A stretch of 64,000 nt of DNA from positions 10,409 through 74,408 of IMG/VR virus record IMGVR_UViG_3300023174_000145; one strand, 5' to 3'. Positions 7,737-43,308 of the stretch are shown piece after piece. This DNA is from a virus. Position 1 is the stretch's first letter, and the number at the start of each line of letters is the position of its first letter. Below the pieces are notes generated by a model. It saw only the letters and a program-made list of their open reading frames with translations, was not told the DNA's origin and searched no databases. Both the position numbers and the translations under genes were made by a program.

Positions 7737-8025
7737 TTGCTCTCTCCAATAAATCTTCTAGGGCAGCCCATTCAATGACTGCTAATCTTATCTTTTGTGT
7801 TTCACCGATTGCCAATAATAGGGCTGGATATTTATCTTTGCTTGTTTTAAGCGTATCGGTAACTATCTTAGCCCATACCTCTTGGTTTATGGTGAAACTT
7901 TTAGATGCTTCTTTTACATCTACAACAAACTCATCTGTAGAACCATCAGCTTTTTGATATTGTCCACGACCAGAGTTTTTATGTGCCTTTGCACCGATCT
8001 TTTTTAATTCACCACGTTCACTCAT
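7720..8025 (-). CDS. PD-(D/E)XK nuclease, Holliday-junction-resolvase-like
   Basis: NSGRG...KAD...VVDVKE motif. Confidence 0.6.
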   Translation of the reverse strand: MSERGELKKIGAKAHKNSGRGQYQKADGSTDEFVVDVKEASKSFTINQEVWAKIVTDTLKTSKDKYPALLLAIGETQKIRLAVIEWAALEDLLERANGINP

Positions 8026-8213
8026 AGGGTAGCCTTATTAATATGTCCTTGTGGACATACATATTTAAGAATCATATTATCTTCATCAAGTGATGCAGAA
8101 TTAACATTTGCAAAACATTCACCACATATAAAATTTCCACCCATTGTTACTTCATCTTCTTTCTCTACTTCTTGTTCTTTTTTACCGCCGACAAACTCTC
8201 TTGGATCTATCAT
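8022..8213 (-). CDS. Small zinc-ribbon protein
   Basis: CGEC...CPQGH. Confidence 0.6.
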   Translation of the reverse strand: MIDPREFVGGKKEQEVEKEDEVTMGGNFICGECFANVNSASLDEDNMILKYVCPQGHINKATL

Positions 8214-25911: not shown

Positions 25912-28900
25912 TTATATACACTCCTTAAGAGTCAAAGTCATTTCAGGTCCATTATTCTTTACAGAATATGATATACCTGTAATTGTGTATGTTGATGATT
26001 CATCATTATAATATTTATCTGAATATAATAAACCTATTTTATCTCCAAGTTTTAATAAAGGATTTGGAAAAACGCCAACACTTAATGTTTTTCTTTCTTT
26101 TGATAGATTATCAATTACCCACTTTGCCAAATGTTTTGCCTGTTCTCTATCATTAATAAACTGTCCACTAAGTTGTAATTCCTGTGTACCATATAATTTT
26201 CTATTAGCATTATATTTATCGTTTATATCAAGTTCATAGTTTTCCTTTTCTAAAAATTCTTTAGATTTAATTGTTCCAGGACTTCTTTCTTTTAATGGAA
26301 AACCAATAATAAATAATGGTGTTCCATTTTCTGTATCTAATTTTATTGAAGAGTTTCCAGTATTATGTACCCAAAAGGTGCCACCGTGATTTGATAAATT
26401 AACATCAGATACTTGATAGTATTTACTTGTTTCCGATAGAGATATAATTTTTGGTGTTAAACCAACGTCTTCAAATCGTATATCAAATTTTTTAACTTCT
26501 CTAGCTAATTTTCCAAAATCTTCAAAATATAAGTAGCTTCCCTTTCCATTTGTTTGTCTTCTATAATTAATTCCAGGTGGCAAGTAACATCTATTAAAAT
26601 CATTTTTTATTTCAGAGAAGTATGATATATCATCTTCGTCATCTTTTCTAGGAACAATTCCCTCTGCACCAGAATAAGCAAATAAATGTTCAAATATTGC
26701 AGATGACTGACCTCTAACAAAAAGACCTATTGTTGATTTTGTATCTGATGTTGAAGTAATTTTATTTTTACTATCCACCGCAGTCATTACATTCTGACCT
26801 TCCCAAAAAATATCAAACTGGTTTGAACCATTAGAACGAGTTATTGAAATATCTAAGTCAAAAATTATAGCCTGTGATTTTCCATCTTTTTGTCCTTGTT
26901 GTTCTAAACCAGACCAACTTGTATTTGAAACATTTACCCAAGTTTCTGCAATTACTGTTGGAATATACTTTCCATTGTCCTGAGTTATTTTGTATAGCCT
27001 CATATTTCCAAAGTTTGCAGATGCAAGTTGATTGCCATTAATAGTTCCAACATCTTCTACTTCTAAAAAGTATCCAGTAATTCCATTCTTTTTTACACTA
27101 ACGTCCCAAGACACACCAGCAATCATGCCAGAGTTTATTGGCTTGTCACCCTTACTTACATTTTTAGGAACATCATATACAAGTTTCATTCTAGTACCAA
27201 ACCTATTTACAACAACTTTTGTACCATTTTTATTTTTTATTTGTTTAAAAATTCCAGTAATAATATTTTCTGATGGATCTGATGAAGGTAATAAGTTTTT
27301 ATTAGTTGAACTATATTTTCTATTTTGGGTAACTGTTCCTTTACATTTTGGACCACTAAGTTTTAAGTTTCCAGTATATCCTTGCAAAAACTTGGTTGTT
27401 CTCATAGTTTGATTATTAAAAAATGTTTCTGTTTTATTTGAAACAGTAAGATTGTTAGTTAACATATCTATATTTGCACCCACTCCATACAACCTAACTC
27501 CAGATCTTTTCCAGTCAGGATTTTGTTCCAAGAATGACTTATGTGTATTTACACCTTTATGTTCAGAAACCTCTGTATTATTTATTCCTCTTCCATCACC
27601 AGTTACTAAAATATCTATTTTTTCTTCATCTAAAGAATTTTGTGTTTCTTCTGTTTGTATATCTAAAATTAAAGCTAAAGGCTCTAATGAGCTTCCTTGT
27701 TTCAAACTTGATTTTGTATAGTTATACTCTTCTGAACTAAATATTATTTTTGTTTTATATGAATTATATTTTGGATTACTAACCAAAAACATAATTCCAT
27801 TATATTTAATTATTTCTTGATCAATTCTTATATAACCTTTATAGGATGATGTAGCAAAAGTATGAATGTAGTTACTATCTAATTTTATCAACATTCTTTT
27901 TCTTATATCGTCAGTAGTATGTTCTGCTAAAAATTTAATTAACTGTTCTTTATTTTTTTTAGATTCAAAAGTTAGTAGATTATTATTGTTTAAATAATCA
28001 TATATACCAGTAACTGGAATATCCTGTACTAATATTGCTGCACATAAAACATTTTCTGTTTTATCTTTTTTATTACTAGCCTCCCATAAGATACCAAAAG
28101 AATTTCTAAAATTTGTATCTGCTAAAGACAAAGAAAATGATGGATCTTCTAGTGCTTTTTTTACAGACTCATTTACATCGCTTTTAGTTATAAGAGCAGC
28201 ACTTGGTTGTTTTGCAATGCCAATATCATTATATGCAACATTAATATCTGTAATTGGAGGTTCAAATGTTTCGTTAAAAGACGATATATTGCTTATGTAT
28301 GTAATATCATCTTTTATCAAAGAGTTGTCATTTCCATATAACCAAAAATCTTTTGTTTTTTGTTTTGCAATAACTCTTTCTTTAGTCATAGCTACAAGGT
28401 TATTACTTTCATCCATATACATAGATGTTTGTGTTGAAACAGCAAGAGACTCTAAAACCTCCATAACATTTTGTTCTTTTTTTGAATAGAAAAAATCTAA
28501 AATTACATCTTCTTTATCAGCATTTTCATCTGTACCAGTTTTTTCAAAAATAAAATTGTTATATCCTATATTGTCTAAAAGAGTTAACATTGCAACAGAT
28601 GTTGGTACACCAGATTTATTTGCAATAAGTAAGTCTGGGGCAGCTCTTTCTTTAAAAAATTTAAAATAATCTTGTAATGATACATTAACTGTAGAGTTAT
28701 CTCCTTCATTCCATATGTCTGTATACAATGTTTTTAAAGGAAACCTATATGTTTTATTATCTACAATAACTTTTTGATAAATTTTTACTTCTACATTTGG
28801 CTTTAATACATCGCATATAATTGAATATGTATTATTTTTACTAAATGCACCATCTGTATTAGAAATTGTTATTGTTCCTGATGTAGAGGCAATAGATCCG

Positions 28901-29868
28901 ACTGGCAGACCATATGCAGAATTAGCCATTTCAGAATCAATATTAAAATCTACCACTGAATTAGTTATGTCAGAAACTAATCTAGGACTAATTTCAATTA
29001 CCTCTAATGGAATATATGCTGAAGACATTTTTGTTGCTTTAAATCTTATACCCTTAATTTTTATTGCACCGCTTACAGAATTATTATATGCAAGAAAATC
29101 AAATACTGTTTTTTCATCTGGTTGATCAACAGCATTAATATAGGCATCCCAACTATTTGATAATGAATCATAATAAATATCTAATACGCCATCACTTAAA
29201 AGATTTGATGATGTTTTTGTAAATATTGTTTTCCAAGTATCATCAATATAAACATCAATATCAAAATTGGTGGCATATCCTAAATGTTTTTGTGTTTTTA
29301 TTGATATTTTATTAATCCATATATCATTTTTATAAATAACATAAGGTGCTGCAAAATCAATATAATTTTGAGAATTTGATGTACCAACAGAATATCCTGC
29401 TTTTTTTCTACCAGAAGACCAATATTTAAAACTTGATTCATTTCCCATAGGATATAATCTTGGCGATGATGTATTAATATCAAAGATATTTTTTATTTCT
29501 AAGGTGGATGATTGTCCAGATATTGTTTTCTCTTTACCAATCATTGAATCTAAATAAATAGATTTAATAATTCCAGGATTTGGTCTATTTGTCTCAAATA
29601 TACTATAAAGAGGAGAATGTTTTTCTCTTACAATATCTTTTACTATATGATCCGTAGAATATTTTATATCTTGGCAACCAGAATCTTTTTCATTATAATT
29701 ATTATATGATCCTATTTCTAATATTGGAGTATATGCATTGTAGTTCCATTCAACAATTATTTGATGATTAGAATCTATTGTAGAATTTGCAGCAAATTCT
29801 TTTTGAATATCTTTATATGTTTCTGGATGAGAAGTAATAAATTTATCGATAGTTTTATTAGTTAACAT
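25912..29868 (-). CDS. Large minor tail (hub / central-fibre-like) protein
   Basis: Second gene after the TMP; LPVG...G.ITISN, C-terminal FPNPLLKLGDKI hub-like ending. Confidence 0.7.
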   Translation of the reverse strand: MLTNKTIDKFITSHPETYKDIQKEFAANSTIDSNHQIIVEWNYNAYTPILEIGSYNNYNEKDSGCQDIKYSTDHIVKDIVREKHSPLYSIFETNRPNPGIIKSIYLDSMIGKEKTISGQSSTLEIKNIFDINTSSPRLYPMGNESSFKYWSSGRKKAGYSVGTSNSQNYIDFAAPYVIYKNDIWINKISIKTQKHLGYATNFDIDVYIDDTWKTIFTKTSSNLLSDGVLDIYYDSLSNSWDAYINAVDQPDEKTVFDFLAYNNSVSGAIKIKGIRFKATKMSSAYIPLEVIEISPRLVSDITNSVVDFNIDSEMANSAYGLPVGSIASTSGTITISNTDGAFSKNNTYSIICDVLKPNVEVKIYQKVIVDNKTYRFPLKTLYTDIWNEGDNSTVNVSLQDYFKFFKERAAPDLLIANKSGVPTSVAMLTLLDNIGYNNFIFEKTGTDENADKEDVILDFFYSKKEQNVMEVLESLAVSTQTSMYMDESNNLVAMTKERVIAKQKTKDFWLYGNDNSLIKDDITYISNISSFNETFEPPITDINVAYNDIGIAKQPSAALITKSDVNESVKKALEDPSFSLSLADTNFRNSFGILWEASNKKDKTENVLCAAILVQDIPVTGIYDYLNNNNLLTFESKKNKEQLIKFLAEHTTDDIRKRMLIKLDSNYIHTFATSSYKGYIRIDQEIIKYNGIMFLVSNPKYNSYKTKIIFSSEEYNYTKSSLKQGSSLEPLALILDIQTEETQNSLDEEKIDILVTGDGRGINNTEVSEHKGVNTHKSFLEQNPDWKRSGVRLYGVGANIDMLTNNLTVSNKTETFFNNQTMRTTKFLQGYTGNLKLSGPKCKGTVTQNRKYSSTNKNLLPSSDPSENIITGIFKQIKNKNGTKVVVNRFGTRMKLVYDVPKNVSKGDKPINSGMIAGVSWDVSVKKNGITGYFLEVEDVGTINGNQLASANFGNMRLYKITQDNGKYIPTVIAETWVNVSNTSWSGLEQQGQKDGKSQAIIFDLDISITRSNGSNQFDIFWEGQNVMTAVDSKNKITSTSDTKSTIGLFVRGQSSAIFEHLFAYSGAEGIVPRKDDEDDISYFSEIKNDFNRCYLPPGINYRRQTNGKGSYLYFEDFGKLAREVKKFDIRFEDVGLTPKIISLSETSKYYQVSDVNLSNHGGTFWVHNTGNSSIKLDTENGTPLFIIGFPLKERSPGTIKSKEFLEKENYELDINDKYNANRKLYGTQELQLSGQFINDREQAKHLAKWVIDNLSKERKTLSVGVFPNPLLKLGDKIGLLYSDKYYNDESSTYTITGISYSVKNNGPEMTLTLKECI

Positions 29869-30395
29869 TATACTTCCACCAAACTAAGATTTATATCCCA
29901 AAGATCTGTATCTATGCCCCTAGTTATAATATTATATGAAAAGTTTTCAAAAAATACATTTACTATTTCTACATTTGTTTTAATTTCTGACTTTAATACT
30001 GAAGGATCATTGTCATAAACAAACAATGCCCAAAAACTTCCAGTATGATTGTTATACCAATCTAATATTTGTTGACCACCACCAAACTGATTTCTTGTAT
30101 TTGAATATTCAGTTACATAGTCTTTTCTAGATGGAAGTCTTTTCCAAGAAGTAGAATATGTTTTTTTATCTGCAATATGATATGAACGCATTGTTCCATT
30201 TATCATACGTTGTCTATGTTCTATTCTTTCAAAAGCAATAGCAAGATCTGAACGATTATCATCAGATAGATATAAATAATTTGTTCCAAGATCCCATTTT
30301 CCAGCTCTAGAACCTACACCTTCTACTGGCTTATCTTCTGTAAAAATAATTAATGATGGTCTAGAATATTTTTCTTGTAAGTATCCATATGACAT
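29868..30395 (-). CDS. Distal-tail-like minor tail protein
   Basis: Immediately follows the TMP; R.RMINGTMRSY.IADK, WDINLSLVEV. Confidence 0.65.
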   Translation of the reverse strand: MSYGYLQEKYSRPSLIIFTEDKPVEGVGSRAGKWDLGTNYLYLSDDNRSDLAIAFERIEHRQRMINGTMRSYHIADKKTYSTSWKRLPSRKDYVTEYSNTRNQFGGGQQILDWYNNHTGSFWALFVYDNDPSVLKSEIKTNVEIVNVFFENFSYNIITRGIDTDLWDINLSLVEV

Positions 30396-33300
30396 TAACA
30401 GTAAACACCTCTTGAGTTATTACCTATTGTACCACCCATAGCCTTATTAACGTGACCCATAACCATATCCATACCTGCACCATTAAAGTTAAAGTGATAA
30501 GTTGGGGCATTTGTGTTACCTTCTGCATATCCACCGCCATTATATTGTGCAATAGATGCTATACCAGATGGAGAAATGGATGGTGTTGAAGGAATACTAT
30601 ATGTAGGAGAAGATGGAACTGAGGTTCGTGGCATTACTCCAACACCACCCCCACCTGCATATCTTCCAGCATTAACAGCATTCATAAATGGAACGCCATA
30701 CTTTGCTACAGAAGAAGCCTTTACTACATATTCCCCATTTGACAACATCGCTGGTATAGAATCGGAAGTTGTGCTTCCTGGACCAACCATATGTCCACCA
30801 TTAGCGGCATATTTAAACCAAGGGAAAAGTCTATGAGTTATTCTAGAACCACCATAATTTGTTACGTTTGAATAATCTTCGCCCTCACCTTTACCTGTTA
30901 AAATATTGAATAGTGATTGAGCAGAGTCAAATTGATCCAGTTTTTCCGCTGCCTCTGGAACATATTTTTTGGCTGCTTTTCCAACAGGTTTTGCAGCATT
31001 TAATACCGACCTTACTCTATTGCTTTCAATTATTGATTTAATTTTATTAGACTCTGAAAAAGTTTTTAGTTTATTAACATCTGTAACTAAATCTATAAGT
31101 GTTCCACTAGCATAAACAGCATTTTTTGCATCTATTGTTTTTGACAATAATCCAGCAACTCTAGATGCTTTTGACGCAATAGATGCAATTCTTCCAACCT
31201 GAGCAAATTTTGCAAGCATAGCAGCCTGACCAGCTCCTGGAACAAACATAAGGGCGGTGGTGCCTAATTCTAATAATCCACCACCAAGTGATTTAAATCC
31301 AGCCTTAAATTCACCTTTTCTAAAATGCCTATACATACTAGTAAAATCATCAACACCCAGTAAATTATTTGCAATTCCAGAGCCAATACCCTTAATAAAC
31401 TTTTTAGGATCTTTCATTGTAGATATTGCAAAATTTTCAACAGTATCTGAGATGTCAGAGACGGTGCTTCTTGCTCCATTCCATAAACGTTTAACCAATC
31501 CACCAAATGCAAAGTGTTGAGAATTTATAGAATCTAAGAAAGGTTTTCCATACTTTGATACAGATGATGCTTTAACTACATATTCTCCATCAGATAACAT
31601 AGCTGGAATTGAGTCAGATGTTGCTGTTCCTGGACCTGAGATATATCCACCATCTGCCCAATATTTCCATTGTGTAACAGGAGTTTTTGATGGATCTGTT
31701 TTAAGTGCTTTTTTATTGTATGGAGATCCATCAGCATATTGCCATTTTCCACCAACTTCGTAAATTCTTGTTCCATCTTGAGCATATCCAGATTTTGCAG
31801 TTGATGGTGGGCTTGTTTGTGGAGTTGTTGGTGGATTTGTAATTCCAGGCAAACCATTTTCATTAAGTGTTATGGCATAAGCAAAAGCTGCAACAGCTTC
31901 TGTAACTCCAGGAGCAGGTGGTTTTTGCAAAAGACCAAATACATCCTTATAGGCTTTAGATGTTTCTGGATCAATACCCTGTGATTGAAATATCTTTTTT
32001 ACATTTGTACTTGCAGCATTTAATCTATCTACTGCATCCATCGTGTCTCCAGCCATAATAGCAACAGCATCATTAAAACCTGATTTTGCAGTGTTAAATG
32101 ATTTGATTATACTTTGATCTTTAGTATTAATAGTCAATCCAGTTCCAGCAGAAATTCCTGTCTTTTCTGCTTTATCTGCAGCAGATTGTGCAGCAAGTAT
32201 TGCTTTCTGCCAGCCTGGAGTACCAATAGACATACCCTGAGCTTTTTCAATCAAATCTAATGCTTGAGTTATTTGACCAACAGCTTGTGATTCTTTTTTG
32301 CGAAGCAAATCTATTTCTGCATTAATATTATCTATCTCAGCCTGATGTCTGGTATCTTCTGCTTTCTTTCTGTCATCAATAGCCTTTAATGAATCATCAA
32401 GTTTCTTTTGTTCTGCATCGGCGGTGTCTTGAATATTTTGCATAGACAAATCTCTACCATATTGATCTGCTGCACTTGCTGCCTCTATTTGAGAACCAAT
32501 AAATCCAAATACATCTCCAGATGCTATAGCCTTTAATCCAGTTAAACCAGTTTGTCTTTGCTTTGCATAAAAATCCTCTGCTTCTTTTTCTTTTTGTAAT
32601 TGCTTTAAATAGTAATCGGTATTTTCTTGCAATATACCTTTTTTGTTATTAATTCTTTCTGCTTCAAGATCTAGATTTTCTAATGCCTTTTCGTGTCTTT
32701 TATCTTCAGTTTCAAGTTCTGCCTGTTTTGCCTCTATTGCAACATCAAATACTTTTTGAATACCTTCTTTTAATTGATTTAGTTGTTTTGCGGTATCTTC
32801 TAGTTGAAGGTCAACATCAGTTTCTATTTTTACAAGAGACATTCTTTTTGCTAATTCTTCTGGAATTTTTTTGCCAAGGTCTGCCTCTATTGTTCCATTT
32901 AAAATTGCTGCACTAAGGTCTTGACCCATACCATTACCTAGAGCAAGAAGTGCAGCTTTTTGTTTTGATTTATCTAGTTTAAAGAAAGCACCATCTTTTC
33001 CAAAAAAATCAAACAGTGCGCTTCCTTCTCCAAAACCTGCATCTTTAACCATTTGTTGTAGTTGATCTGACAATTTTCCTATATCAGCATTTTTAAATTC
33101 AGAAACTATTAAATTTACTGCTTCTGTGGAAGCAGTTGGATTTTCCGCAGCCATTGCAAATGCAGATTTTAATGTTGCACCTAACTGTGATGCAATTTGA
33201 GTTTTAACTTTATTATCAATTAATACTGGTGCAATTAATGATGTAATCTGCGCTCCACCAAGATAGCCCCAAACACCTTTTGTTCCAAAAATTCCCCTTA

Positions 33301-36300
33301 AGAATTTATCCTTAAGACCATTTCCAGTTGCACCAAGTGCTTCAAACATTACTCTTTGATTTTCAGCACCAGACTTCATAAGTTGGTCCCAACTCTGACC
33401 ATTCCATTGTGCTTTAACACCAAATTCATTAGATCTCTGTTGTAATAAAGCTGTTTGATTTTTTAATGTTAATATTTGTTGAGCCAGAGCATCTGGTGCT
33501 GTTTTTATTGTTTTAAGTCTTTCAACTACACTAGCATAAGAATCTAAGGCTTGTCCTTGTCTTGCAATTTCTGCCGTTATTTCTCTTGCTTCTTTAGCCT
33601 TTATACCTCTTTGAATTAAATTGCTATAAACATTAACAAGCTGATTATTCTTTTCTTGCAAACTTTTTGTACTTTTTAATGTGTCAATCAATGGACTAAA
33701 ATCTGTTTTAACTGTTTTTTCAAAAGCTTTATTGTATGCACCAATGCCTTGATCTAAACCAGAAATATTTTGAGCAACTTTATTAAATTTTTCTACAGCA
33801 TCTGTTGTAGATTTTAACTGAATACCTAACAATTTTGCAGTTTCTGTAGGTTCAGCAAAAGCTGCTTTTCCAGCCTGTCTTGCTTTTTCCATTTCAGCAT
33901 TATAAATTTCAATACCTTTTTGAATCCCAGTAATTGCAAGATCAATTCCCATACTAACTATAGGATTACTTAAAGCACTTGCAAGTTTGCCCATACCAGA
34001 CCCAACTCCAGATAGTCCCTTTCCAATAAATCTTTTAATAGGACTATTAACAGCTTTTCTAGTTTTAATATCGTAGATATCGGCACTCATTTCGTCACCT
34101 TTATCTTTTAAGGTTTGTCCAAAAGTACCCATACCACTATTTGCAAAGTATTTTAGTCCTTGTGTAGCAGCAGCAATTCCAGCAACCCATTTTTGTCTGC
34201 CATTTTGAACATCAGATGTGAATTGATCCAATACAAACTTCATTTGAAAACCTGATGTTGCCATCATACTGAAAGCTGCAGCAAACTTACCCATACTTCC
34301 TGGTTGAATATCTCCCATATATACTGGTTCTGTAAAATCTGCCGATGTGCTGTCAAAGTTGTTTGCTCTAAAGTTTTTACCACGAATTAATGATGTTCCA
34401 AATGGATGAACAATTCTCTTTCTTGCTTCATCTCCTGGACTTGTAACACCTGCTACTCTGCCATCTGGAGTAACCGCCAAAAGTTCACGGCTTGAAACAG
34501 CCATTGGATGACCACTTGCAGATGTGACCAACATATCATCAATAGTGCTTGAAAGAATCTTACCATCAGGAGATACATTAACGGTAGCACCTGTACCACT
34601 AATTCTGTCTCCACCGCCAGCAAATGATGGATAAATAATTTTTGATTTAGAAACTCCACTTGGCATAACAACACCACTTCTTGATTGTGGAGTTTTTGCA
34701 TCTTCGTTATATGAAATAACTTTAACTGTTGGCAAGCCTGGTGGCAATGCTCTAGATTGAAGTGTTTCATAGAAGTCACCCTTTAGTCTTTCTTGCAAAC
34801 CTGCAACTACCGCAATAGGAATACCTTTTCCATCTTTTGTATTTCTTGGAAACATTCTTGCAAGTTCAAGCATAGTCATAGCACCTTGGCGGGTAGTTGG
34901 ATGAATACCCTTAGAAAGATTAGTTAACTGTTCAATTACAACATTCTTTGGTAATCCTGTTTGTGACATAACTGCATCAATAACATATGGTGCTAATAAT
35001 CCACCACGACTTTGAATATCGCCTCTGCTTTTAAGTGTTTCAAGGAATGTATTATATACCTGAGATTCTTTTATTAGATTTGCTGCTTCCCATATCTTTG
35101 TATACACTTCTCCAGTATTTGTTGTTGCAGGATTAATGTGCGCTAATACGTCTAGCATATAATACATAGCTTTTTTATCTGGATTTTCAAGACCAGCATC
35201 AATTAATGCTTGCATAATTGCTCGTGACTCTGCACCCTTTGTAGCCCAATCAGGCAGTGATCTTAAAACAGTTTCATATTGTTTTGGTGCAGATCCCTTT
35301 TTGTCCCATTTATGAGTTGCTTCTTTCATAGAGTCTTCTGCAAAATTATTCACTCTGCCGCCAGATTGTAGATGTTCTGGATTTAATAAATGTGAAACTC
35401 CAGTAATGTTTTTACCAGTAAGTTCATCTGTAACGCCAAAAAGTTTTGCAAGAGCAATTTCAATTATATTTGGATAAACTTTTGTTCCTGGATTTTTAGC
35501 CCTTCTGCGCTCCGTATTATCTCTAGTTTTTGCAAGAGTGCCACCAATTCCCTCAGCCGCTGTTTGAAAAACTGTATAATCAGCTTTTTTCCTTTGATAA
35601 ATTTTTTCAGGTAATGGAAAACCTTTAAGTTTTGCTGGCAAATTTTTTAAAGTATATGACCCATCTTTTTCTAGTACATATCCCAAAGCATCAAATGCTT
35701 TATCTACACCAAATGCTCCTAAGTCTGTTCTAACATCAGAAAACTCTCCTCGTTTTTTAAAGTCTTCTATTAGCGACTGAACCTTTTTTGACATTAAAGT
35801 TTTTTGATAAAGTTCTGGATCATTAATCATATCGTTTGGATCTGTTTTATTTAATTTGTTAGAAACAAAAGACTGTATTTCTTTAGGATTAATTGTTGTT
35901 CCAATTTTATTAAACAATGCAGTCATTGTATTTAAAGCTTTTGGTGCATTTATATAATTATACAAATCCATTTCTTTTGCTGATGACTTAGAAAGCTCAC
36001 TATTTAATGTTTTTGGTATGTCAAATCCAATAGGATAAAGCAATCTACTTGCTCCAAAACTCATATAAGGTACAGTATGTGCAAATGCTAAATTATTAGA
36101 TTTATATTCTTTTTGATACAAAGATTTATCAGCAAAATTATTTACTCTTCCACCAGATTGCAGCATCCAAGTTGGGAAACCTGCATCTATTGCCTGTTGA
36201 CGCTCTGCTGCATCTGCTGCTTTCTTTTCTAATGCTTTTGCTGTAGGAGCAGATTTTGGCTTAACTGGTTCTGGTTTAATGCCAACGTGATGAGCGTGTA

Positions 36301-39300
36301 TTTCTTTCCAATTAATTTTACTTGCTGCTGACAAATCACCAATAAGTAATTGATACATTGCTTTTTCTTCAGGTGTTAGATTTTGAAGAGCACCAATAGC
36401 ACCACCAGCATTTGCCTGTGCCTCAGCAATAGCATTTAAGAAACCAGCCTCATATTGCTCTGGTGTCATTGATGCTGCTATACCTGCTGTTGCTTCTGCA
36501 AACCATCTACGAGCACCACCTTTTTGCATAAGGAAATTAATTCTTGCTTGTGTAGCAACATCATACTTTTTACCACTTAATGTTCTTGGCTGTGATGCTC
36601 TATCTGAAACATATGCAGCACCTGTATCTGTAACAATGCTATCAAATAAATTATCTGCTTGAAGGTCGGCATCCCCACGAATAATTGCTGCAAGTGCTTG
36701 TTTAAAGAATGCTTCTGGTGCAATCTGTCCAGATGTTTTAGCAAATCTTGAATCAAACGGTGAACGAACACCAAACATTTGCTGACCAGTTTGTGGATGT
36801 AAGAATTTAATTAGTTCTTGTTGTGGTGTGGTCAAACCAAACATATCTTGAGTTAATTGTGTTCCTCTAGATTCAATAAGGGCGGAATCAAGTGTGTTAT
36901 GACCCTTAACAATAAACTTTTGACCATTAATTTCATAAACACCATTAACTCCAGGAATAGCAGAACTAAATCCGCCCATACCACTTTGTCTTTGACCAAC
37001 ATCAGTTATTGGCATACCAGCAAATCTTCCAGTAGTTGCTTCTAGATGAGCAAGGGCAAGCATTTCTTCAATAGCTGCTTGTTTGTCTGCATATTTTTGT
37101 GGCATTAATGATTTAGATTCAAAGTTGTTTACTCTTCCACCTTTTAGATATCCAACTGGACTAAGATCTGGTATATGAGCTGGATATGGTTGTTTTAGCT
37201 GTACATAGTCGCTATTCTCTTCATCCCAAATATCATAGATTGCTTTATTAGATATTGGAGATAGACTAATTCCATCTCTACCAATATTAAAGTTTGTTAT
37301 AGTTGCAGGAGACCATTTGATACCTTGATATCCTTCTTTAACTAAATATTCAAAAAATGGGGAGCCAGGACCACTATGTTCTGCTGCACTTGCTGCATCT
37401 CTAAGCCAATGATTTTTATTAAAGGATGGTCCATAATAATCTCTGTCCTGCATTGCTTCTTTTCCAGATTTTGTTCTAGAAAAAGAATTAATAAGTTGTA
37501 TTAATTGTTTACTTGGTTCGTGAAAATCTGTTGTTTCATCATATGCTTCAATATAGCCTTTTCCTCTAGCAACTTTTCTAAAAGCTTCTCTTGTTTTTGA
37601 AATAGTATATTTGAAGCCTCCTGCATAACTATCCCAGCCTTCATCGTGTGTCTTTAAGTTTGATGAAAAATATGTTCCAGGACCTTCCATTTGAGCTGAC
37701 CCTCTATCATACTTTTCCATAGTTTGAATACGACTTGGATCTATGGCAAGCATTTGGTCTCCAGCGTGAACCATAAACATTTCCATAAGAGCTGCTTTCA
37801 TTCCTGGACTTAACTGATTTGGATCAGTAATATTAAACATACTCATATATCTTCTTAGTATATTTAATTGTGTTTTTTCTTCTTCTGACCGACCAACAGC
37901 ATTAGGAAGCAAAATATGAAGTGCAGTATTTAAAGGATTTGATCCCCATATTTCATCATCTGGATATGGTCTTCTTTTTTCAGACCTTCCACGACCAAAA
38001 CCTTTAAAATTATGAGACTGTAACTCTGTATCTATATATTGAGAAGAAGCCTTTTTTATTTCTTCTTCTGTCCAGCCAACCTCAGCACTCTGTATTCTTC
38101 CACCATTTTGTTTAAAATTAAGAACATAAGGGAATAAATGCTTTTGCTCGTCATAGGCTTTTTGACCACCTCTGAAACTAGATGGCGGTGCCCACATTTG
38201 AGAAACAGAATCTAATACCCCAGAAGTTGTAGCTGTTGCTATTTCTCTTTCCTTTAACTGCTCTCCCATATATTCAGTGCTTTGTGCTATTTGTGATATA
38301 GGAAGCATTGATGTGCCTTTACCAAACAATCTTTCAATCATAACTGTTTGAGGCTCTACACCCATAGGAAGTTGGCTTTGAAGTTCATTCTTTACCGCCT
38401 GAACAGTTTCTTCTCTGGCTCTTCTACCACGATCTATAGCATCTTCAGTAATTGGATCGGTAGGAGATAAACCAATTCTTTTTTGTAAATCTTCTATTAC
38501 AAATGGATTATTTGGTTCTCTTCTAAACATATCAACAACATAATTAAATGCATCTAGATTCTTTTGTTTTCTAAGCAAGTCTTCTTGAATAAAACTTCTA
38601 CCAGAAAGAGGATTGCTAAATTGTTTTCCAACTAGCCAGTCAAGTGCGTGTTCGCTATATGATTGTGGAGAACCATTAAAGTTAATTTTTCTTCCAGCAA
38701 GACTTAAGAAATCTCCAGATTCTAGTGCTTGCAAAATAGCAAGTTGGTCTGCGTCTGGTATTTCTCCAGGAAGTCCCAAAGATGTTTTTCTTCTAAGAGT
38801 CATCGGGTCTTTAGATGGCTCAAAGTATGACATAAATTTTTGAAGTCTTTCTGGATCTTGTCTTAGATATTGAGTGCTTTGTTGCCAAGATTCTACTAAT
38901 GATAATAATTCTGGTGATACTGATTTATCAGCGTAGTTATTTACTCTACCGCCAGACTGGAATATAGGAACTTCACGACCATTTATATTTTTAGTTGCTC
39001 CTGGAAGAACAGAATGAAGCATAAGCATTCTTGTTTTAAGGTCACTACCATATCCAGTAATTGGAATACTCATTCCACCAGGAAGAATAAACTCACCTTC
39101 ATTGCCCCATTGAGTTGTACCTTGAAAAAGTGACTGAACATCTATGCCACCAATATTATTTCCTTTACCAGTCCAAAGGTCGTGTATCCAAGGAATTAAT
39201 TCTCCAGCATCTAGTTTTCTTTGACGAGAATCAGAAACCCTTTTATTTTTTGGATCTTGAAATGTTTTAATAAATCTTTTGTAAAATTCTGTATCTTGAA

Positions 39301-41839
39301 TATCACTGTATGAAGTAAACCTATCTAATCTTTGCTGATATGGTGCATTTGCCCAATTCAATCTTACATCTCCACGACCACCACGACTGGTAAGCCACAT
39401 AAGAGTTTCCCATATTTGTCTTACTTCTGGAGTATGTCTATTTTTATCATCATATAATTCTGCTCGCATTAAATGCTTGTTTTCTAATGAAGTTGAGCCA
39501 GAAACGTCATTAAAAATATCTCTAAAAAATCCTGGATACTTTTCTCCCATTGGAGAGATTCTACCAATTCCAGGAGAACCAGCATTTGCATCAAATGGTC
39601 TACGACCAGCAAGAACTGGATTTATCCAAGCCCTTAATGCAAGTTGTAAATCTTCTGGAGTATATGATGTATTAGCATATCCATTTATTCTACCACCCGA
39701 TTGAAAGCGAGGTGCTTGTTTAAAGTTAATCTCATCAAGAAGACCAGAATGTTGCTGTGCTGCTTTTTTATTTACAACATATTCTCCAGGCTCAAGCATT
39801 GCTGGAACCTTATCTCCGTCTCCACTTCCTGGCACCCAAGGAGAACCACCTCTTTGGAATTTTGCTCTTGGTGGGCTTCCAGTAGTAGTCTGAGCAGCAA
39901 CTTGTTGATTAACAAATCCTGGATTTAATGTAATAGCCTCACTAAGATGTTTTTTATAAACTGCAAGAACTTGATTAAGTTTTTCAACACTAGTTTTTTG
40001 TTGCTCAAAAGCCATAGATAGAGCATCTGTTGATTTTTGTGCCATAAGTTGTGTGTCATCAAGCATCTTAAATTTTTCAACAGGGATACCAGACATTCTT
40101 CTACCAAGGTTAACAATACCCATAGCACCTTTAGCAATATAACCAATAAAGTTAGAAAATACACCAGCAACCATAATTATTGGACCAGCAATTACAGCCA
40201 ATCCAGTCGCTACTTTAATAAAAGATTTTACAGGAGATGGAAGTTTTTCAAAAAATTTGATTACTTGTCCAATTTTTTTAGTCACGTTTTCAATAATTGG
40301 AGTAATTGCACTTGTAATAGAACCACCAATATCAATAAACTGTGATTTAATAGATTCTGTTGCTCTTTGGAATCTTTTAGCACCACTATTCATAAGTGTA
40401 TCCATTTCAAGATATGAATTAGCAGCAAGTTCTTTTTGAGACTTACCCATCAATTCCATAACTTGCATAGTCTGTGAACTTGATGCATTTAGATTATCAA
40501 ACAGTGCAGATATACGAGCAAACTGATATTTACCAAATATGTTTTCAATAACTTGTGCTTTACCAAAATCATCAAGTAGCTGTAATTGTTTTTGAAATTC
40601 AATAATTGTTGGCATAAGTTGTCCACGATTTGCTTGAACAATCTTGTTAATATCTATTCCATATTGTGCAGCAACTTCAGTTGCTCTCTTAGTTGGATTA
40701 ATAAGAGATGCCATACCAGATTTAATTGCGTTAGCACCTTCTGCCGCAGATATACCACCTTCTTTAAGAGCAACCATAAGAAGCGAAAGATCTTTAACGT
40801 CTCCACCAAGTGCTTTAATAACAGGACCAGCTTTTGGAATTGCTGTTGTTAAGTCTTGCAAAGAAAGAGATGTTTGGTTTTCTACAGCATTTAAAAAGTC
40901 AACAGAGTGAGCAAGTTCATCTGTACTAACTTTAAATGCATTTTGAATAGATAGCGTTGCTTTCATAGCATCTGCTCTATCTACATCACCAAGAGTTGCT
41001 AAACGAGTAGTTTCTCTAATTGAATTTAAAAGTTTTTGCCCTTCAAGACCTGTTGCCGCAAGGTCTGCGGCTAGTGATGCGGTATCTTTTACAGCAATAC
41101 CCATAGTTTTTGCAAACTCAATACCTAGTTGCTTTACATTTTCAGTCATTTTAATTGTTTCAGCGTCACCAGATGACATAAGACCAGAACCATAAACTTT
41201 TTGGAATCTTGTTAATTCTTCATTTACTTCACGGAAAATCTTTGACATTTGATTTCCCCACATAGTTAGTGGTACAGTAAGACCAACAGTAATCTGTCTA
41301 CCAGCCCATTGTGTATTTTTACCAAAATTAATAAGTTTGGTTGTTCCATCTTGAACTATAGAATTAAATATATCAAACTGTTTTCTAGAAACAGCAAGTT
41401 TTGTGTTAAAATCATTAAGATTAATATTTTGTGGGGTAATCATCATCCCCAGTTGCTTGCCACTCTTTTCACCAAGAATAGCAAGTTGTGACATTTCACG
41501 AGCAACTTCACGAACTGCTAATTTATGTGCATTTGATGATTTTGTAAATGCACCAATTCCTTCTTTTGCATATTGTTTTAGGCTTAGTTCCTGTTTTTCA
41601 AGGGCTTTTCCAAAAGAAGTTACATTATCAGTGAGCTCTATTACCTTTGTGTTCCAGCCACCCATCTTTCCAATATCACTAGAAAGTGCGTCACCAAGAC
41701 TTAGTTTTAATGCAGATGCTTGTTTATCAAAATTTTGAAGTGTTTGATTTAAAAGATTTGCTTGCGTTTGCAATAAACGCATCTGATTAATGACTGGACC
41801 AAAATCAGCATTATACTTAAAATAAGCATCAATACTCAT
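30395..41839 (-). CDS. Tape measure protein (3814 aa) carrying an internal array of enzymatic cargo domains
   Basis: Follows the tail chaperones; N-terminal TP901-type TMP core (LAATGLEG...DFLNAVENQTSLSLQDLTTAIPKAGPVI...GISAAEGANAIKSG); three GG...D..PAML..GEYVV motifs; long helical/coiled-coil C-half. Confidence 0.93.
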   Translation of the reverse strand: MSIDAYFKYNADFGPVINQMRLLQTQANLLNQTLQNFDKQASALKLSLGDALSSDIGKMGGWNTKVIELTDNVTSFGKALEKQELSLKQYAKEGIGAFTKSSNAHKLAVREVAREMSQLAILGEKSGKQLGMMITPQNINLNDFNTKLAVSRKQFDIFNSIVQDGTTKLINFGKNTQWAGRQITVGLTVPLTMWGNQMSKIFREVNEELTRFQKVYGSGLMSSGDAETIKMTENVKQLGIEFAKTMGIAVKDTASLAADLAATGLEGQKLLNSIRETTRLATLGDVDRADAMKATLSIQNAFKVSTDELAHSVDFLNAVENQTSLSLQDLTTAIPKAGPVIKALGGDVKDLSLLMVALKEGGISAAEGANAIKSGMASLINPTKRATEVAAQYGIDINKIVQANRGQLMPTIIEFQKQLQLLDDFGKAQVIENIFGKYQFARISALFDNLNASSSQTMQVMELMGKSQKELAANSYLEMDTLMNSGAKRFQRATESIKSQFIDIGGSITSAITPIIENVTKKIGQVIKFFEKLPSPVKSFIKVATGLAVIAGPIIMVAGVFSNFIGYIAKGAMGIVNLGRRMSGIPVEKFKMLDDTQLMAQKSTDALSMAFEQQKTSVEKLNQVLAVYKKHLSEAITLNPGFVNQQVAAQTTTGSPPRAKFQRGGSPWVPGSGDGDKVPAMLEPGEYVVNKKAAQQHSGLLDEINFKQAPRFQSGGRINGYANTSYTPEDLQLALRAWINPVLAGRRPFDANAGSPGIGRISPMGEKYPGFFRDIFNDVSGSTSLENKHLMRAELYDDKNRHTPEVRQIWETLMWLTSRGGRGDVRLNWANAPYQQRLDRFTSYSDIQDTEFYKRFIKTFQDPKNKRVSDSRQRKLDAGELIPWIHDLWTGKGNNIGGIDVQSLFQGTTQWGNEGEFILPGGMSIPITGYGSDLKTRMLMLHSVLPGATKNINGREVPIFQSGGRVNNYADKSVSPELLSLVESWQQSTQYLRQDPERLQKFMSYFEPSKDPMTLRRKTSLGLPGEIPDADQLAILQALESGDFLSLAGRKINFNGSPQSYSEHALDWLVGKQFSNPLSGRSFIQEDLLRKQKNLDAFNYVVDMFRREPNNPFVIEDLQKRIGLSPTDPITEDAIDRGRRAREETVQAVKNELQSQLPMGVEPQTVMIERLFGKGTSMLPISQIAQSTEYMGEQLKEREIATATTSGVLDSVSQMWAPPSSFRGGQKAYDEQKHLFPYVLNFKQNGGRIQSAEVGWTEEEIKKASSQYIDTELQSHNFKGFGRGRSEKRRPYPDDEIWGSNPLNTALHILLPNAVGRSEEEKTQLNILRRYMSMFNITDPNQLSPGMKAALMEMFMVHAGDQMLAIDPSRIQTMEKYDRGSAQMEGPGTYFSSNLKTHDEGWDSYAGGFKYTISKTREAFRKVARGKGYIEAYDETTDFHEPSKQLIQLINSFSRTKSGKEAMQDRDYYGPSFNKNHWLRDAASAAEHSGPGSPFFEYLVKEGYQGIKWSPATITNFNIGRDGISLSPISNKAIYDIWDEENSDYVQLKQPYPAHIPDLSPVGYLKGGRVNNFESKSLMPQKYADKQAAIEEMLALAHLEATTGRFAGMPITDVGQRQSGMGGFSSAIPGVNGVYEINGQKFIVKGHNTLDSALIESRGTQLTQDMFGLTTPQQELIKFLHPQTGQQMFGVRSPFDSRFAKTSGQIAPEAFFKQALAAIIRGDADLQADNLFDSIVTDTGAAYVSDRASQPRTLSGKKYDVATQARINFLMQKGGARRWFAEATAGIAASMTPEQYEAGFLNAIAEAQANAGGAIGALQNLTPEEKAMYQLLIGDLSAASKINWKEIHAHHVGIKPEPVKPKSAPTAKALEKKAADAAERQQAIDAGFPTWMLQSGGRVNNFADKSLYQKEYKSNNLAFAHTVPYMSFGASRLLYPIGFDIPKTLNSELSKSSAKEMDLYNYINAPKALNTMTALFNKIGTTINPKEIQSFVSNKLNKTDPNDMINDPELYQKTLMSKKVQSLIEDFKKRGEFSDVRTDLGAFGVDKAFDALGYVLEKDGSYTLKNLPAKLKGFPLPEKIYQRKKADYTVFQTAAEGIGGTLAKTRDNTERRRAKNPGTKVYPNIIEIALAKLFGVTDELTGKNITGVSHLLNPEHLQSGGRVNNFAEDSMKEATHKWDKKGSAPKQYETVLRSLPDWATKGAESRAIMQALIDAGLENPDKKAMYYMLDVLAHINPATTNTGEVYTKIWEAANLIKESQVYNTFLETLKSRGDIQSRGGLLAPYVIDAVMSQTGLPKNVVIEQLTNLSKGIHPTTRQGAMTMLELARMFPRNTKDGKGIPIAVVAGLQERLKGDFYETLQSRALPPGLPTVKVISYNEDAKTPQSRSGVVMPSGVSKSKIIYPSFAGGGDRISGTGATVNVSPDGKILSSTIDDMLVTSASGHPMAVSSRELLAVTPDGRVAGVTSPGDEARKRIVHPFGTSLIRGKNFRANNFDSTSADFTEPVYMGDIQPGSMGKFAAAFSMMATSGFQMKFVLDQFTSDVQNGRQKWVAGIAAATQGLKYFANSGMGTFGQTLKDKGDEMSADIYDIKTRKAVNSPIKRFIGKGLSGVGSGMGKLASALSNPIVSMGIDLAITGIQKGIEIYNAEMEKARQAGKAAFAEPTETAKLLGIQLKSTTDAVEKFNKVAQNISGLDQGIGAYNKAFEKTVKTDFSPLIDTLKSTKSLQEKNNQLVNVYSNLIQRGIKAKEAREITAEIARQGQALDSYASVVERLKTIKTAPDALAQQILTLKNQTALLQQRSNEFGVKAQWNGQSWDQLMKSGAENQRVMFEALGATGNGLKDKFLRGIFGTKGVWGYLGGAQITSLIAPVLIDNKVKTQIASQLGATLKSAFAMAAENPTASTEAVNLIVSEFKNADIGKLSDQLQQMVKDAGFGEGSALFDFFGKDGAFFKLDKSKQKAALLALGNGMGQDLSAAILNGTIEADLGKKIPEELAKRMSLVKIETDVDLQLEDTAKQLNQLKEGIQKVFDVAIEAKQAELETEDKRHEKALENLDLEAERINNKKGILQENTDYYLKQLQKEKEAEDFYAKQRQTGLTGLKAIASGDVFGFIGSQIEAASAADQYGRDLSMQNIQDTADAEQKKLDDSLKAIDDRKKAEDTRHQAEIDNINAEIDLLRKKESQAVGQITQALDLIEKAQGMSIGTPGWQKAILAAQSAADKAEKTGISAGTGLTINTKDQSIIKSFNTAKSGFNDAVAIMAGDTMDAVDRLNAASTNVKKIFQSQGIDPETSKAYKDVFGLLQKPPAPGVTEAVAAFAYAITLNENGLPGITNPPTTPQTSPPSTAKSGYAQDGTRIYEVGGKWQYADGSPYNKKALKTDPSKTPVTQWKYWADGGYISGPGTATSDSIPAMLSDGEYVVKASSVSKYGKPFLDSINSQHFAFGGLVKRLWNGARSTVSDISDTVENFAISTMKDPKKFIKGIGSGIANNLLGVDDFTSMYRHFRKGEFKAGFKSLGGGLLELGTTALMFVPGAGQAAMLAKFAQVGRIASIASKASRVAGLLSKTIDAKNAVYASGTLIDLVTDVNKLKTFSESNKIKSIIESNRVRSVLNAAKPVGKAAKKYVPEAAEKLDQFDSAQSLFNILTGKGEGEDYSNVTNYGGSRITHRLFPWFKYAANGGHMVGPGSTTSDSIPAMLSNGEYVVKASSVAKYGVPFMNAVNAGRYAGGGGVGVMPRTSVPSSPTYSIPSTPSISPSGIASIAQYNGGGYAEGNTNAPTYHFNFNGAGMDMVMGHVNKAMGGTIGNNSRGVYC
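36164..37108 (-). other. TMP cassette 4: HipA/PI3K-like kinase fold
   Basis: Gly-rich loop GGFSS..GVNGVY, FIVK, E helix (LIES), GL.TP, DADLQADN, DTG. Confidence 0.6.
37151..38080 (-). other. TMP cassette 3: H-Y-type ART (ART-PolyVal-like) domain
   Basis: MVHAG...IDPSRI...GPGTYFS...Y...LVKEGYQGIKW. Confidence 0.55.
38117..38920 (-). other. TMP cassette 2: second R-S-ExE ART-like domain
   Basis: TLRR ... PQSYS ... KGTSMLPISQI ... KEREI. Confidence 0.55.
38963..39673 (-). other. TMP cassette 1: R-S-ExE ADP-ribosyltransferase-like domain
   Basis: LMRA ... FTSYS ... GGIDVQSL ... NEGEFILPGG. Confidence 0.7.
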
Positions 41840-41841
41840 TA

Positions 41842-42216
41842 TTAATTAACTCCAATCATTCCATAGGAAAGACCATCATCTTCACTAATACCAAAAGCAA
41901 TAGCATTTGCCTGAGTCATATCTCCAGTAACCCTTGCAGCAGCTCTTGCTTGAATTTCTTCTAGTGTTGTCACTTTTTCACTTTGTTGCGTTTGTGAATC
42001 TGATAAATCAATGCCCTGAATTGCAGCAAGGAATTTATTTTGACGATTTTCTTTTTCATGCATAGCACCTAATGTAGCTATAAGCTCAGACATTGACAAA
42101 CTATTCTCTAGTTCTTCATAGTCTTTCCAGTGACCTAATAGGAATACTTCTGCTTCCAAGGCAGCCAGGTCTAGTTCGTTCCAGCTAGTTCCTGAGCTGC
42201 CGCTAGTAGGTTTGGG
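41842..42216 (-). CDS. Tail assembly chaperone, post-frameshift (gpT-like) segment
   Basis: The -1 frame is open from the slippery site: ...GSSGTSWNELDLAALEAEVFLLGHWKDYEELE...; sits between the chaperone and TMP. Confidence 0.8.
   Translation of the reverse strand, partial: PKPTSGSSGTSWNELDLAALEAEVFLLGHWKDYEELENSLSMSELIATLGAMHEKENRQNKFLAAIQGIDLSDSQTQQSEKVTTLEEIQARAAARVTGDMTQANAIAFGISEDDGLSYGMIGVN
42161..42216 (-). promoter_or_regulatory. Programmed -1 ribosomal frameshift signal
   Basis: Heptamer C CCA AAC (42216-42210), 8-nt spacer, stem GGCAGC(T)CAGG...CCTGGCTGCC. Confidence 0.8.
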
Positions 42217-42503
42217 TCGTTAAGCTTAATATCTGCAGCAACCTCCAATATTTTATACATAGTCTGAAGATCTAAAACCTCTTCAAGTTTTTCGACCTCC
42301 GAAAGTTCTGGTGCGAACTGCTTCATAGCAATTGATGTACATTCAATGAGGGTCTCCAAGAAACCATCTTCACTATCCTTAGTTTCGATTTCTTTCCACT
42401 TTTTCATTACTTCTCTTAAGTTTTTAAGATTGAGTGGTTTAACGGTTATTACTGTACCGTCCTGTAATTCCATCTCAATTGATTCATATATTTTTGTAGC
42501 CAT
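42171..42503 (-). CDS. Tail assembly chaperone (gpG-like)
   Basis: Between the major tail and TMP genes; AGGAG RBS. Confidence 0.85.
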   Translation of the reverse strand: MATKIYESIEMELQDGTVITVKPLNLKNLREVMKKWKEIETKDSEDGFLETLIECTSIAMKQFAPELSEVEKLEEVLDLQTMYKILEVAADIKLNDPNLLAAAQELAGTN

Positions 42504-42609: not shown

Positions 42610-43308
42610 TTAAGCAGTTACATATAGACGATCAATGATCTTTCCATAAAGTTGGTTTGCACCAGCACCAGCATTATTGAACTGTGATGAAGCCAAGAGA
42701 CGGAATGTTACAGGGAATACTGTAGCTTCATTTCTCTTAATTGCAACCGAAGCAGCTTCCATAGAAACAGCACGATAACCAATGTAGATACGCTCTGAGT
42801 ATTTTTCGTTATTAACAGCTGTTCCAATTTCTGGACCTGGACCAACAATAAGAATTGAACGCTCCAAAGGAGTAAGACCTAGAGCACCACCATTAATCTC
42901 GAACCTTTTGATTGTTCCAGATGATGTCGGACTTGATGTAGCCTGAAGATCTGTTGACTGTGAACCAACAACAGCGTAAAGGTTTTCAAGACTTGCCTCT
43001 GCAAAAGTTGTCTTAACCATTGCTTTCTGACCTTGCTTGTAAATCTTTGCAACATCAAGAAGCTGATCAACATTTACTTCACCATAATCTGGGGTAAAGT
43101 CAAATGTAACACCTTCAGATGTGTAACCAACGTGTCTCCACTTATCTGTAGCTTCTTGAACATTGCTTGGTTTTTGATAACTACCAGCGGTATTTGCAGT
43201 CCAAATTGCTTCAGTTTTAGCAATACTAGTTTCTGTCAATTCTTGACCAACAGCACCAACGTAGAAAACGCCAGCACCAACAATAATATTTTTTGAATTG
43301 TTTGCCAT
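42610..43308 (-). CDS. Major tail protein
   Basis: NIIVGAG, VGYTSEG, P.YGEV.VDQLLD, KRNEATVFPVTFRLL; position. Confidence 0.85.
   Translation of the reverse strand: MANNSKNIIVGAGVFYVGAVGQELTETSIAKTEAIWTANTAGSYQKPSNVQEATDKWRHVGYTSEGVTFDFTPDYGEVNVDQLLDVAKIYKQGQKAMVKTTFAEASLENLYAVVGSQSTDLQATSSPTSSGTIKRFEINGGALGLTPLERSILIVGPGPEIGTAVNNEKYSERIYIGYRAVSMEAASVAIKRNEATVFPVTFRLLASSQFNNAGAGANQLYGKIIDRLYVTA

Follow-up and report, generated by a model that had tools for sequence, protein, structure and literature searches.

We analyzed a 64,000-nucleotide stretch of phage DNA (positions 10,409 to 74,408 of IMG/VR record IMGVR_UViG_3300023174_000145; this whole stretch is the window, and all positions below are numbered in it). 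It encodes a tail tape measure protein (TMP) of 3,814 amino acids, in which a short peptide around Gly-Gly-Arg recurs six times. This peptide probably serves as the regular joint between the modules of a cargo array that is part of the TMP: the constraint on it acts at the level of the peptide, the six segments (cassettes) of the array fall in distinct families, and the ends of alignments with related proteins are concentrated at the copies. A literature search found no description of shuffled cassette arrays in TMPs or of this linker.

Results

Copies of the joint peptide and their codons

The six linker copies have the pattern (F/L/K)-(Q/K)-x-G-G-R-[IV]-x-x-[FYA]-[AE], and the tripeptide GGR occurs seven times in total in the TMP. 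The arginines of the six copies are residues 717, 965, 1248, 1569, 1898 and 2162 (positions 39689, 38945, 38096, 37133, 36146 and 35354, all within the range 35330-39706 given in the original prediction; linkers and cassettes are numbered as in Table 1). The GGR[IV] pattern was found six times, compared to a mean of 0.12 and a maximum of 2 in 2,000 shuffles of the protein, and a degenerate DNA pattern for the linker gave three matches versus none in 100 shuffles. The wider pattern [FYWLM]x(1,2)GG is present 19 times versus 9.7 expected (p = 0.002). No other open reading frame (ORF), in any frame, of the 74-kb genome contains the motif, and neither Q.GG nor GG[RK][IVLM] is present in the capsid, protease-scaffold, portal, tube and large tail proteins.

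The two best-conserved 30-mers both encode QSGGRVNNFA, with five synonymous differences between them. When all pairs of copies are compared, identical residues are encoded by different codons in approximately half of the cases, and identical stretches reach 5-14 nucleotides at most, depending on the pair. Among 44 distinct DNA versions of the linker in relatives, each of the invariant residues G, G and R is written with three or four codons (GGT/GGA/GGC/GGG; AGA/CGT/CGC/AGG). Because the codons vary synonymously while Gly-Gly-Arg stay fixed, the constraint on the linker acts on the peptide and is indicative of purifying selection. The original prediction, made from the letters of the window, had described six copies with synonymous variation and a peptide-level constraint, and the shuffles and codon counts bear this out. 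It had also described GGR as invariant in all six copies; this holds within the 3,814-residue TMP but does not extend to its relatives, in which GGM, GGK and GGT variants occur along with copies that consist of the right half only and lack QxGG.

The linker in related tape measure proteins

Among 5.8 billion proteins, we identified 33 giant TMPs (2,521-4,420 residues) related to the array region. The array-bearing relatives contain two to eight motif copies each, 119 in total, with the consensus x-Q-x-G-G-R-[IVM]-[NPQ]-[GSN]-[YHF]-A-[DE]-x-[ST]; Gln at position -2 is present in 108 of the 119 copies. There are two subtypes of the linker, ...NGYA[DT].S and ...QS[HA]A / ...SA.GG. The GGR linker is absent from more distant TMPs (35-45% identity in the N-terminal part), thus the exact motif is clade-specific. 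A linker-like core, K-x-x-GG-R-I-x-S, is located about 10 residues before the C-terminus in most relatives; the corresponding copy in the 3,814-residue TMP itself is degenerate (GGTIG). The search for shorter homologs yielded no stand-alone cassettes; all matches were contig-end fragments of giant TMPs.

Exchange of cassettes among relatives

Proteins were cut at the motif and the resulting pieces were clustered into families. The 35 unique TMPs, with two to seven motif copies each, comprise approximately 17 cassette families in 21 orders, with many different neighbor pairs. For example, the order of families is H-J-F-D-C-B in the 3,814-residue TMP and A-F-D-G-B, K-A-I-D-M-B, E-C-B or A-A-C-B elsewhere. 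The length of the array ranges from 1,020 to 1,932 residues among relatives. The N-terminal 717 residues are constant in all 35 proteins, and the same last cassette closes 33 of the 35 arrays.

The original prediction regarded the linker as a point of cassette exchange and proposed, as a check, that alignment breakpoints among relatives should coincide with the motif. Many do: 59 of the 99 BLAST segment ends in residues 650-2520 are located within 10 residues of a motif, compared to 7.9% expected (p about 2e-39, for relatives that are not independent samples), and when only distinct segment-end positions are counted, 21 of 45 are near a motif (p about 4e-12). The same is seen in individual proteins. 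In relative P0003, sliding identity is about 90% up to and including cassette 4, drops to 25-48% in cassette 5 and recovers to about 75% in cassette 6. In P0004, cassette 2 is replaced as a unit, with identity steps at linkers 2 and 3. Cassette 5 is replaced in P0003, P0004 and P0007 while its neighbors remain similar, and P0007 keeps cassette 4 at 86% identity in a different order. At 130 distinct junctions, co-variation with the upstream family is seen at residues -12 to -5 and with the downstream family at +6 to +15, but with neither in the core (-4 to +5), which places the switch inside the conserved core. Taken together, segment ends, identity steps, family orders and junction co-variation provide good support for the view that the motif is the point at which whole cassettes were gained, lost, moved or replaced among relatives.

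Variation is also found inside cassettes. A patch of approximately 60 residues in cassette 3 (positions 37340-37520, residues ~1440-1500) shows 60-80% identity to P0035, a partial protein that is otherwise 98-100% identical, and a contig of lake metagenome run X2 has a loose end at 37343, inside this hypervariable patch and away from the linkers. A patch of 40 residues in cassette 1 (39380-39500, residues ~780-820) has only about 20-30% identity in all carriers, compared to 55-90% for the rest of the cassette.

Contents of the cassettes

The AlphaFold2 (AF2) input for cassette 4 was a 14-sequence alignment that included both flanking linkers. The model has a mean predicted local distance difference test (pLDDT) score of 82; residues 1-21 and 342-358, which contain the two linkers, are below 50. 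The best structural matches are CtkA (Z = 11.1), CotH (10.8) and MavQ (10.5), followed by PI4K2A, LepB and HipA, and the alignment contains invariant K, E, D.D....N and D.G columns. Cassette 4 is thus predicted to be an atypical kinase fold of the CtkA/CotH/HipA-like type. Because pLDDT falls below 50 at both edges of a confident domain, linkers 4 and 5 are predicted to be exposed, disordered linear peptides that are not part of the neighboring folds. The kinase-like cassette was also observed in distant TMPs (L100, L078, L056 and L098) that lack the GGR linker, where it is located between two full GE[AF]V modules; this suggests that the cassette is older or more mobile than the clade-specific linker.

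For cassette 3, PF18760 (ART-PolyVal) is assigned to the nearest clusters in ESM Atlas at 0.86-0.89; these values are under the trust level and serve as a lead only. No match was found for cassette 1 in PDB, Pfam or ESM Atlas, and sequence searches of PDB gave no match for cassettes 2, 3 and 5. For cassette 6, the AF2 model had a pLDDT of 40 and was not used, and a PDB profile search gave chance-level matches only. A HMMER search of cassettes 1-3 against 1.84 billion representatives returned 20 matches, most of them inside giant TMP-like proteins and the rest in short fragments. In other clades of TMPs, related joints of the form Q-x-GG-[GM]-[IV]-P-G-[YF]-x-E-G, or full modules, flank the homologs of cassettes 1, 2 and 3.

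Parent module of the linker

The modules are copies of a conserved unit of approximately 55 residues, Φ-[AQ]-x-G-G-x-[IV]-x-G-P-G-...-D-x-[IV]-P-A-M-L-x-x-G-E-[YF]-V-[VI]-...-N-...-Φ-x-x-G-G, with a further element [IV]PG[FY]. It is present in the TMP at residues 661-715, 3394-3447 and 3677-3731, and in degenerate form at 2406-2490. The original prediction had pointed to related [FYW]xxGG sites as boundaries of other segments (residues 661, 2406, 3394, 3443, 3677 and 3727); all of them were confirmed, and they correspond to edges of this module. In related metagenome TMPs the module was found 127 times, typically with one copy behind the N-terminal body and another close to the C-terminus; nearly all TMPs of the wider family have its full form, whether or not they contain cassettes. 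The linker is a shortened copy of the module edge: linker 1 is the trailing edge of module 1, and the others are the same edge without the module.

There is no Pfam family for the module. Tape_meas_lam_C was considered as a candidate and rejected, as this family maps to residues 627-701 of lambda gpH and has no match to the 3,814-residue TMP. Residues 731-791 of lambda gpH are the best match to the module profile among approximately 2,100 decoys, with a marginal E value of 0.056, and scoring gpH with a matrix of the module edge points to residues 777-792 (p = 0.002); BLASTP of the module against gpH is not significant. T5 pb2 fails both the module profile and the edge matrix (p = 0.24).

Lake-metagenome contigs

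Logan contigs from other lake samples are short and of low depth, and in runs X3-X5 they cover the stretch partially. In run X2, contigs leave the sequence in opposite directions at 36100/36108, 25-50 nucleotides beyond linker 5, and contig ends are located at 36193/36195; the summed depth triples in the bin with linker 5, and a stretch of approximately 85 nucleotides is shared around this joint. Position 34362, two codons past the final half-linker, is a loose end in X3 and a contig start in X2. Several co-occurring genotypes have a DNA island in common at module 1 (39758-39866): depth peaks there 4-5-fold in X2, and loose ends recur at 39758 and 39866 in three or four runs. The contig breaks at joints are a direct but weak population signal of exchange.

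Recombination between co-occurring genomes at orthologous joints is plausible. The longest identical run between copies within the TMP gene is 14 nucleotides, less than classical RecA exchange between them would require. Exchange is more likely to occur via the orthologous joints of co-occurring genomes. The suggestion of the original prediction that residual DNA similarity allows the RecA/Cas4 machinery of the phage to swap cassettes is therefore only partly retained: RecA, a Cas4-like nuclease and RuvC are encoded, but the copies themselves are too dissimilar.

The tape measure protein gene and its genome

The TMP is assigned by a PF10145 match at residues 240-436 (E = 7.7e-28) and by phrog_10030 (E = 2e-107); matches to TMP PHROGs span the first 650 and the last 400 residues. 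The gene is flanked by a tube-like gene upstream (42610-43308) and a minor tail protein downstream (25912-29868), in a siphovirus-like neighborhood with the portal, S78 prohead protease-scaffold, capsid, adaptor and tube-like proteins upstream and minor tail proteins downstream. The phage genome is 74.4 kb long with a G+C content of 34%. Its DNA is present in lake and freshwater metagenomes from several studies, and a partial protein 96% identical to the TMP was assigned to an alphaproteobacterial metagenome-assembled genome. No close relative was found among GenBank phages (megablast gave no match, and tblastn of the array gave 4% coverage only, on the module). Features of the TMP gene are listed in Table 1.

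Table 1. Features of the tape measure protein gene, in the order of the protein (aa, amino acid residues)
Feature	Coordinates	Strand	Basis or remark
Tail tape measure protein gene, 3,814 aa, single ORF	30395..41839	-	PF10145 and TMP PHROGs
Constant N-terminal TMP body, aa 1-655, hydrophobic segment aa 537-572	39875..41839	-	~70-90% identity in all array-bearing relatives; hydropathy
Module 1, aa 658-712, FQRGG...VPAMLEPGEYVV...APR, continuous with linker 1	39704..39868	-	conserved TMP module
Linker 1, aa 712-726, FQSGGRINGYA	39662..39706	-	24 BLAST segment ends here
Cassette 1, aa 727-959	38963..39661	-	own family in relatives
Linker 2, aa 960-974, FQSGGRVNNYA	38918..38962	-	motif match
Cassette 2, aa 975-1242	38114..38917	-	replaced as unit in P0004
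Linker 3, aa 1243-1257, FKQNGGRIQSAE, "SA" subtype	38069..38113	-	motif match
Cassette 3, aa 1258-1563, possibly ART-PolyVal-like	37151..38068	-	ESM Atlas lead only
Linker 4, aa 1564-1578, YLKGGRVNNFE	37106..37150	-	motif; pLDDT <50 in model
Cassette 4, aa 1579-1892, predicted atypical protein/lipid-kinase-like fold	36164..37105	-	AF2 model
Linker 5, aa 1893-1907, LQSGGRVNNFA	36119..36163	-	motif; pLDDT <50; 20 segment ends
Cassette 5, aa 1908-2156	35372..36118	-	replaced in P0003, P0004, P0007
Linker 6, aa 2157-2171, LQSGGRVNNFA	35327..35371	-	motif; 8 segment ends
Cassette 6, aa 2172-2405, constant last cassette, all-helical	34625..35326	-	last in 33 of 35 arrays; many invariant residues
Degenerate module, aa 2406-2490, FAGGG...SPGDEAR	34370..34624	-	conserved in all array-bearing relatives
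Right-half-only seventh copy, aa 2491-2499, RANNFDSTS, closes array	34343..34369	-	identity step at aa ~2480-2500
C-terminal module 2, aa 3391-3447, WADGG...IPAMLSDGEYVV...FAFGG	31499..31669	-	conserved TMP module
C-terminal module 3, aa 3675-3731, AANGG...IPAMLSNGEYVV...YAGGG	30647..30817	-	conserved TMP module

The giant TMPs (the 3,814-residue protein and its homologs P0002-P0025) are nearly free of cysteine, with 0-1 Cys per 2,800-3,800 residues; the sole Cys of the 3,814-residue protein is its final residue. A few dozen cysteines are expected in proteins of such lengths at typical composition. This scarcity fits a TMP that crosses the oxidising periplasm unfolded.

Several other genes of the window deserve a description. 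Recombination genes are located at 5797-9217 (RuvC, 5797-6363; PD-(D/E)XK/Cas4-like nuclease, 6628-7401; RecA, 8210-9217). Two family-4 glycosyltransferases (4610-5716 and 59659-60612), which also match a "GT4-conflict" Pfam family at or just under the cut-off, may be involved in modification of DNA or of the cell surface. A protein of 1,351 residues (51520-55575), encoded between the portal and ribonucleotide reductase genes, contains a concanavalin/Laminin_G_3-like region at residues 90-224 (just below the Pfam cut-off) and otherwise no known family. A single protein of 579 residues (47792-49531) combines the S78 prohead protease, a Hva1_TUDOR-like domain and a long coiled-coil, scaffold-like tail. 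The tail protein at 23662-24831 has a weak, sub-cut-off match to the beta-trefoil D3 domain of the CARDS toxin (E = 5.6e-4), and this domain probably serves carbohydrate-binding receptor recognition.

Discussion

A proposed joint in a modular cargo array

We propose that the Gly-Gly pair would serve as a hinge, so that folding, unfolding and passage through the tail tube would be independent for each cassette. Crossovers at the joint would yield viable proteins because the joint would be tolerant and is common to several genomes. The conserved Q, R, [IV], aromatic and A residues may be read by a common partner, either a processing activity, as in the cleaved TMPs of lambda and T5, or a surface of the tail lumen or of a chaperone. 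By analogy to the RNA polymerase fused to the TMP of phage P23-45, the cassettes would probably enter the host with the ejected TMP.

Several points weigh against this interpretation. Among the six cassettes, a confident fold was predicted for cassette 4 only. Arg appears to be dispensable in the motif, because the GGM, GGK and GGT variants exist in relatives. It should be noted that the p values for the segment ends overstate the number of exchange events, the relatives not being independent, and that each loose end in the metagenome runs comes from one contig. In addition, random crossovers filtered for folded products would also be expected to give breakpoints at linkers; since such a survival filter alone could explain the breakpoints, the motif may mark the points of exchange without promoting exchange.

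Possible cleavage or docking of the joint

A proteolytic joint would make the TMP a polyprotein that is cut at every joint in tail maturation or after ejection, thus freeing enzymes; we consider this possible, although rather unlikely. Candidate bonds are those between GG and R, between GGR and [IV], or two residues before GG, the last being the position of the T5 cut relative to AEGG (by eye, with no statistical support). Such a role is consistent with linkers that are predicted to be disordered and accessible, that show conservation on either side of GG and that occur in the TMP only. Precedents are known. Lambda gpH is converted to gpH* and gpHC by loss of approximately 14 kDa from a glycine-rich region, with the site and enzyme unknown as of 2025 (PMC12617516), and T5 pb2 is converted to pb2* and pb2C by a cut after R1127 that separates an enzyme-like C-terminal piece (PMC12617516, PMC10038345); according to both papers, TMP cleavage was hardly examined in other phages. 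Both are TMPs that are cut during tail assembly in or beside a glycine-rich stretch, and gpH 731-791, located beside the glycine-rich region of gpH, bears a marginal resemblance to the Φ-x-x-GG...GE[FY]V module of the array TMPs. They differ from the array TMPs in that there is one cut near the C-terminus and no series of joints. AEGG directly follows the T5 cut, but pb2 fails both the profile and the matrix, so that the link to T5 is by eye only and the resemblance is not significant.

Other observations speak against cleavage. The array TMPs contain neither HExxH nor HxxEH, have 0-1 Cys in more than 3,000 residues and give no peptidase match in Pfam, which argues against a zincin or cysteine protease acting in cis; and no JAB, C39, NlpC or other peptidase family besides the prohead protease was found in ten structural proteins scanned, seven of them from the tail region. 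A protease acting in trans could hardly access many sites in a closed tail tube, and cutting at the linker-like core close to the C-terminus of most relatives would free nothing. Known di-glycine sites (C39 leader peptides, ubiquitin-like proteins and deubiquitinases, adenain, PLpro) have a hydrophobic P4 residue, LxGG or IxGG. In the linker copies, Gly-Gly is always present, but P4 is the Gln found in 108 of 119 copies, and a variable hydrophobic residue or Lys is at P5; the di-glycine protease site of the original prediction thus does not follow the classical rule. The prohead protease, named there as an enzyme to try on the linker, is an unlikely agent as well, because phage tails assemble apart from heads and the motif is confined to the TMP, with neither Q.GG nor GG[RK][IVLM] in the capsid, protease-scaffold and portal proteins.

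The joint could also be an uncut docking or register peptide that binds a common surface (the tail assembly chaperone, putatively encoded at 42171-42503, the tube lumen or hub, or neighboring TMP chains), such that after each bulky cassette three or six parallel chains are re-aligned and tube polymerisation continues. This alternative seems unlikely, although a plain hinge would require neither the length nor the specificity of the core (Q, R, [IV], aromatic, A), and the parent module is found in nearly every TMP of the wider family, cassette-free ones among them. The same core is found at the extreme C-terminus of most relatives, and this end of the TMP sits in the tail-tip hub in T5, lambda and 80alpha (PMC10038345, PMC12617516); by analogy, this location suggests that the C-terminal core may be a binding peptide. 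On the other hand, the C-terminal copy of the 3,814-residue TMP is degenerate, and GGM and GGT variants and half motifs are tolerated.

A broader version, in which joints of the types G-x-[IVM]-[PN]-[GN]-[FY] and Φ-Q-x-GG-R are general in TMPs and represent processing sites at which a changeable kit of ready-made enzymes, with kinases and NAD-using transferases among its members, is released in the host before the DNA, would also locate the cut in lambda gpH; we regard it as improbable. Finally, it is very improbable that the conservation mainly reflects a DNA-level homology patch for RecA, Cas4 and RuvC of the phage with no role of the peptide: the three genes are present, crossovers map to the conserved core and DNA islands at module 1 and around linker 5 are common to co-occurring genotypes, but this view is largely refuted by codon usage, namely differing codons for about half of the identical residues, identical runs of 5-14 nucleotides, and residues that stay fixed while Arg alternates between AGA and CGT/CGC and Gly among four codons, as expected from selection on the peptide.

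Comparison to known systems

With the joint of a cargo array as the preferred explanation, several known systems can be compared. Vibrio MARTX toxins are arrays of effector domains, the repertoire of which is changed by recombination, with linkers where domains are released; an internal cysteine protease domain cuts after Leu. They would share with the TMP array the arrangement of putative effector-type domains and linkers in one polypeptide. They differ in that the TMPs are essentially free of cysteine and the linker is unrelated.

Polyvalent proteins would be similar in that many unrelated enzyme-type domains are combined in one giant, late-expressed, virion-associated polypeptide, with kinases and ART-PolyVal among the typical contents; both recombinational variability of cassettes and release by processing were proposed for them (Iyer et al. 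2017, PMC5512222). That description mentions neither tape measure proteins nor a common linker. The TMP array, in contrast, is located between constant N- and C-terminal TMP bodies, has one conserved joint and contains no recognisable peptidase domain: the embedded metallopeptidase or autoprocessing peptidase that is frequent in polyvalent proteins was not found in array TMPs in the searches for HExxH/HxxEH, Cys and Pfam families described above. The gp96 protein of Thermus phage P23-45, a TMP fused to an active virion RNA polymerase that acts in the host at the start of infection (PMC10770324), is likewise a giant TMP with a large enzyme. It differs in having a single N-terminal enzyme, no shuffled array and no repeated joint motif in its description, on which the likeness is based.

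Significance

TMPs are usually seen as rulers and channel formers. In this clade of lake phages, interchangeable enzyme-like modules would in addition be mounted on the ruler, coupled by one conserved peptide. The joint provides a simple sequence rule that may be used to find such cargo in metagenomes and to delimit unknown domains for work on their structure or biochemistry, and its relation to the module beside the cleavage region of lambda gpH offers a testable candidate for the site at which gpH is processed. If the modules are delivered, this would be a second route of injecting pre-made host-manipulating proteins, beside head-packaged ones such as T4 Alt, with a repertoire that can be reshuffled between co-occurring phages.

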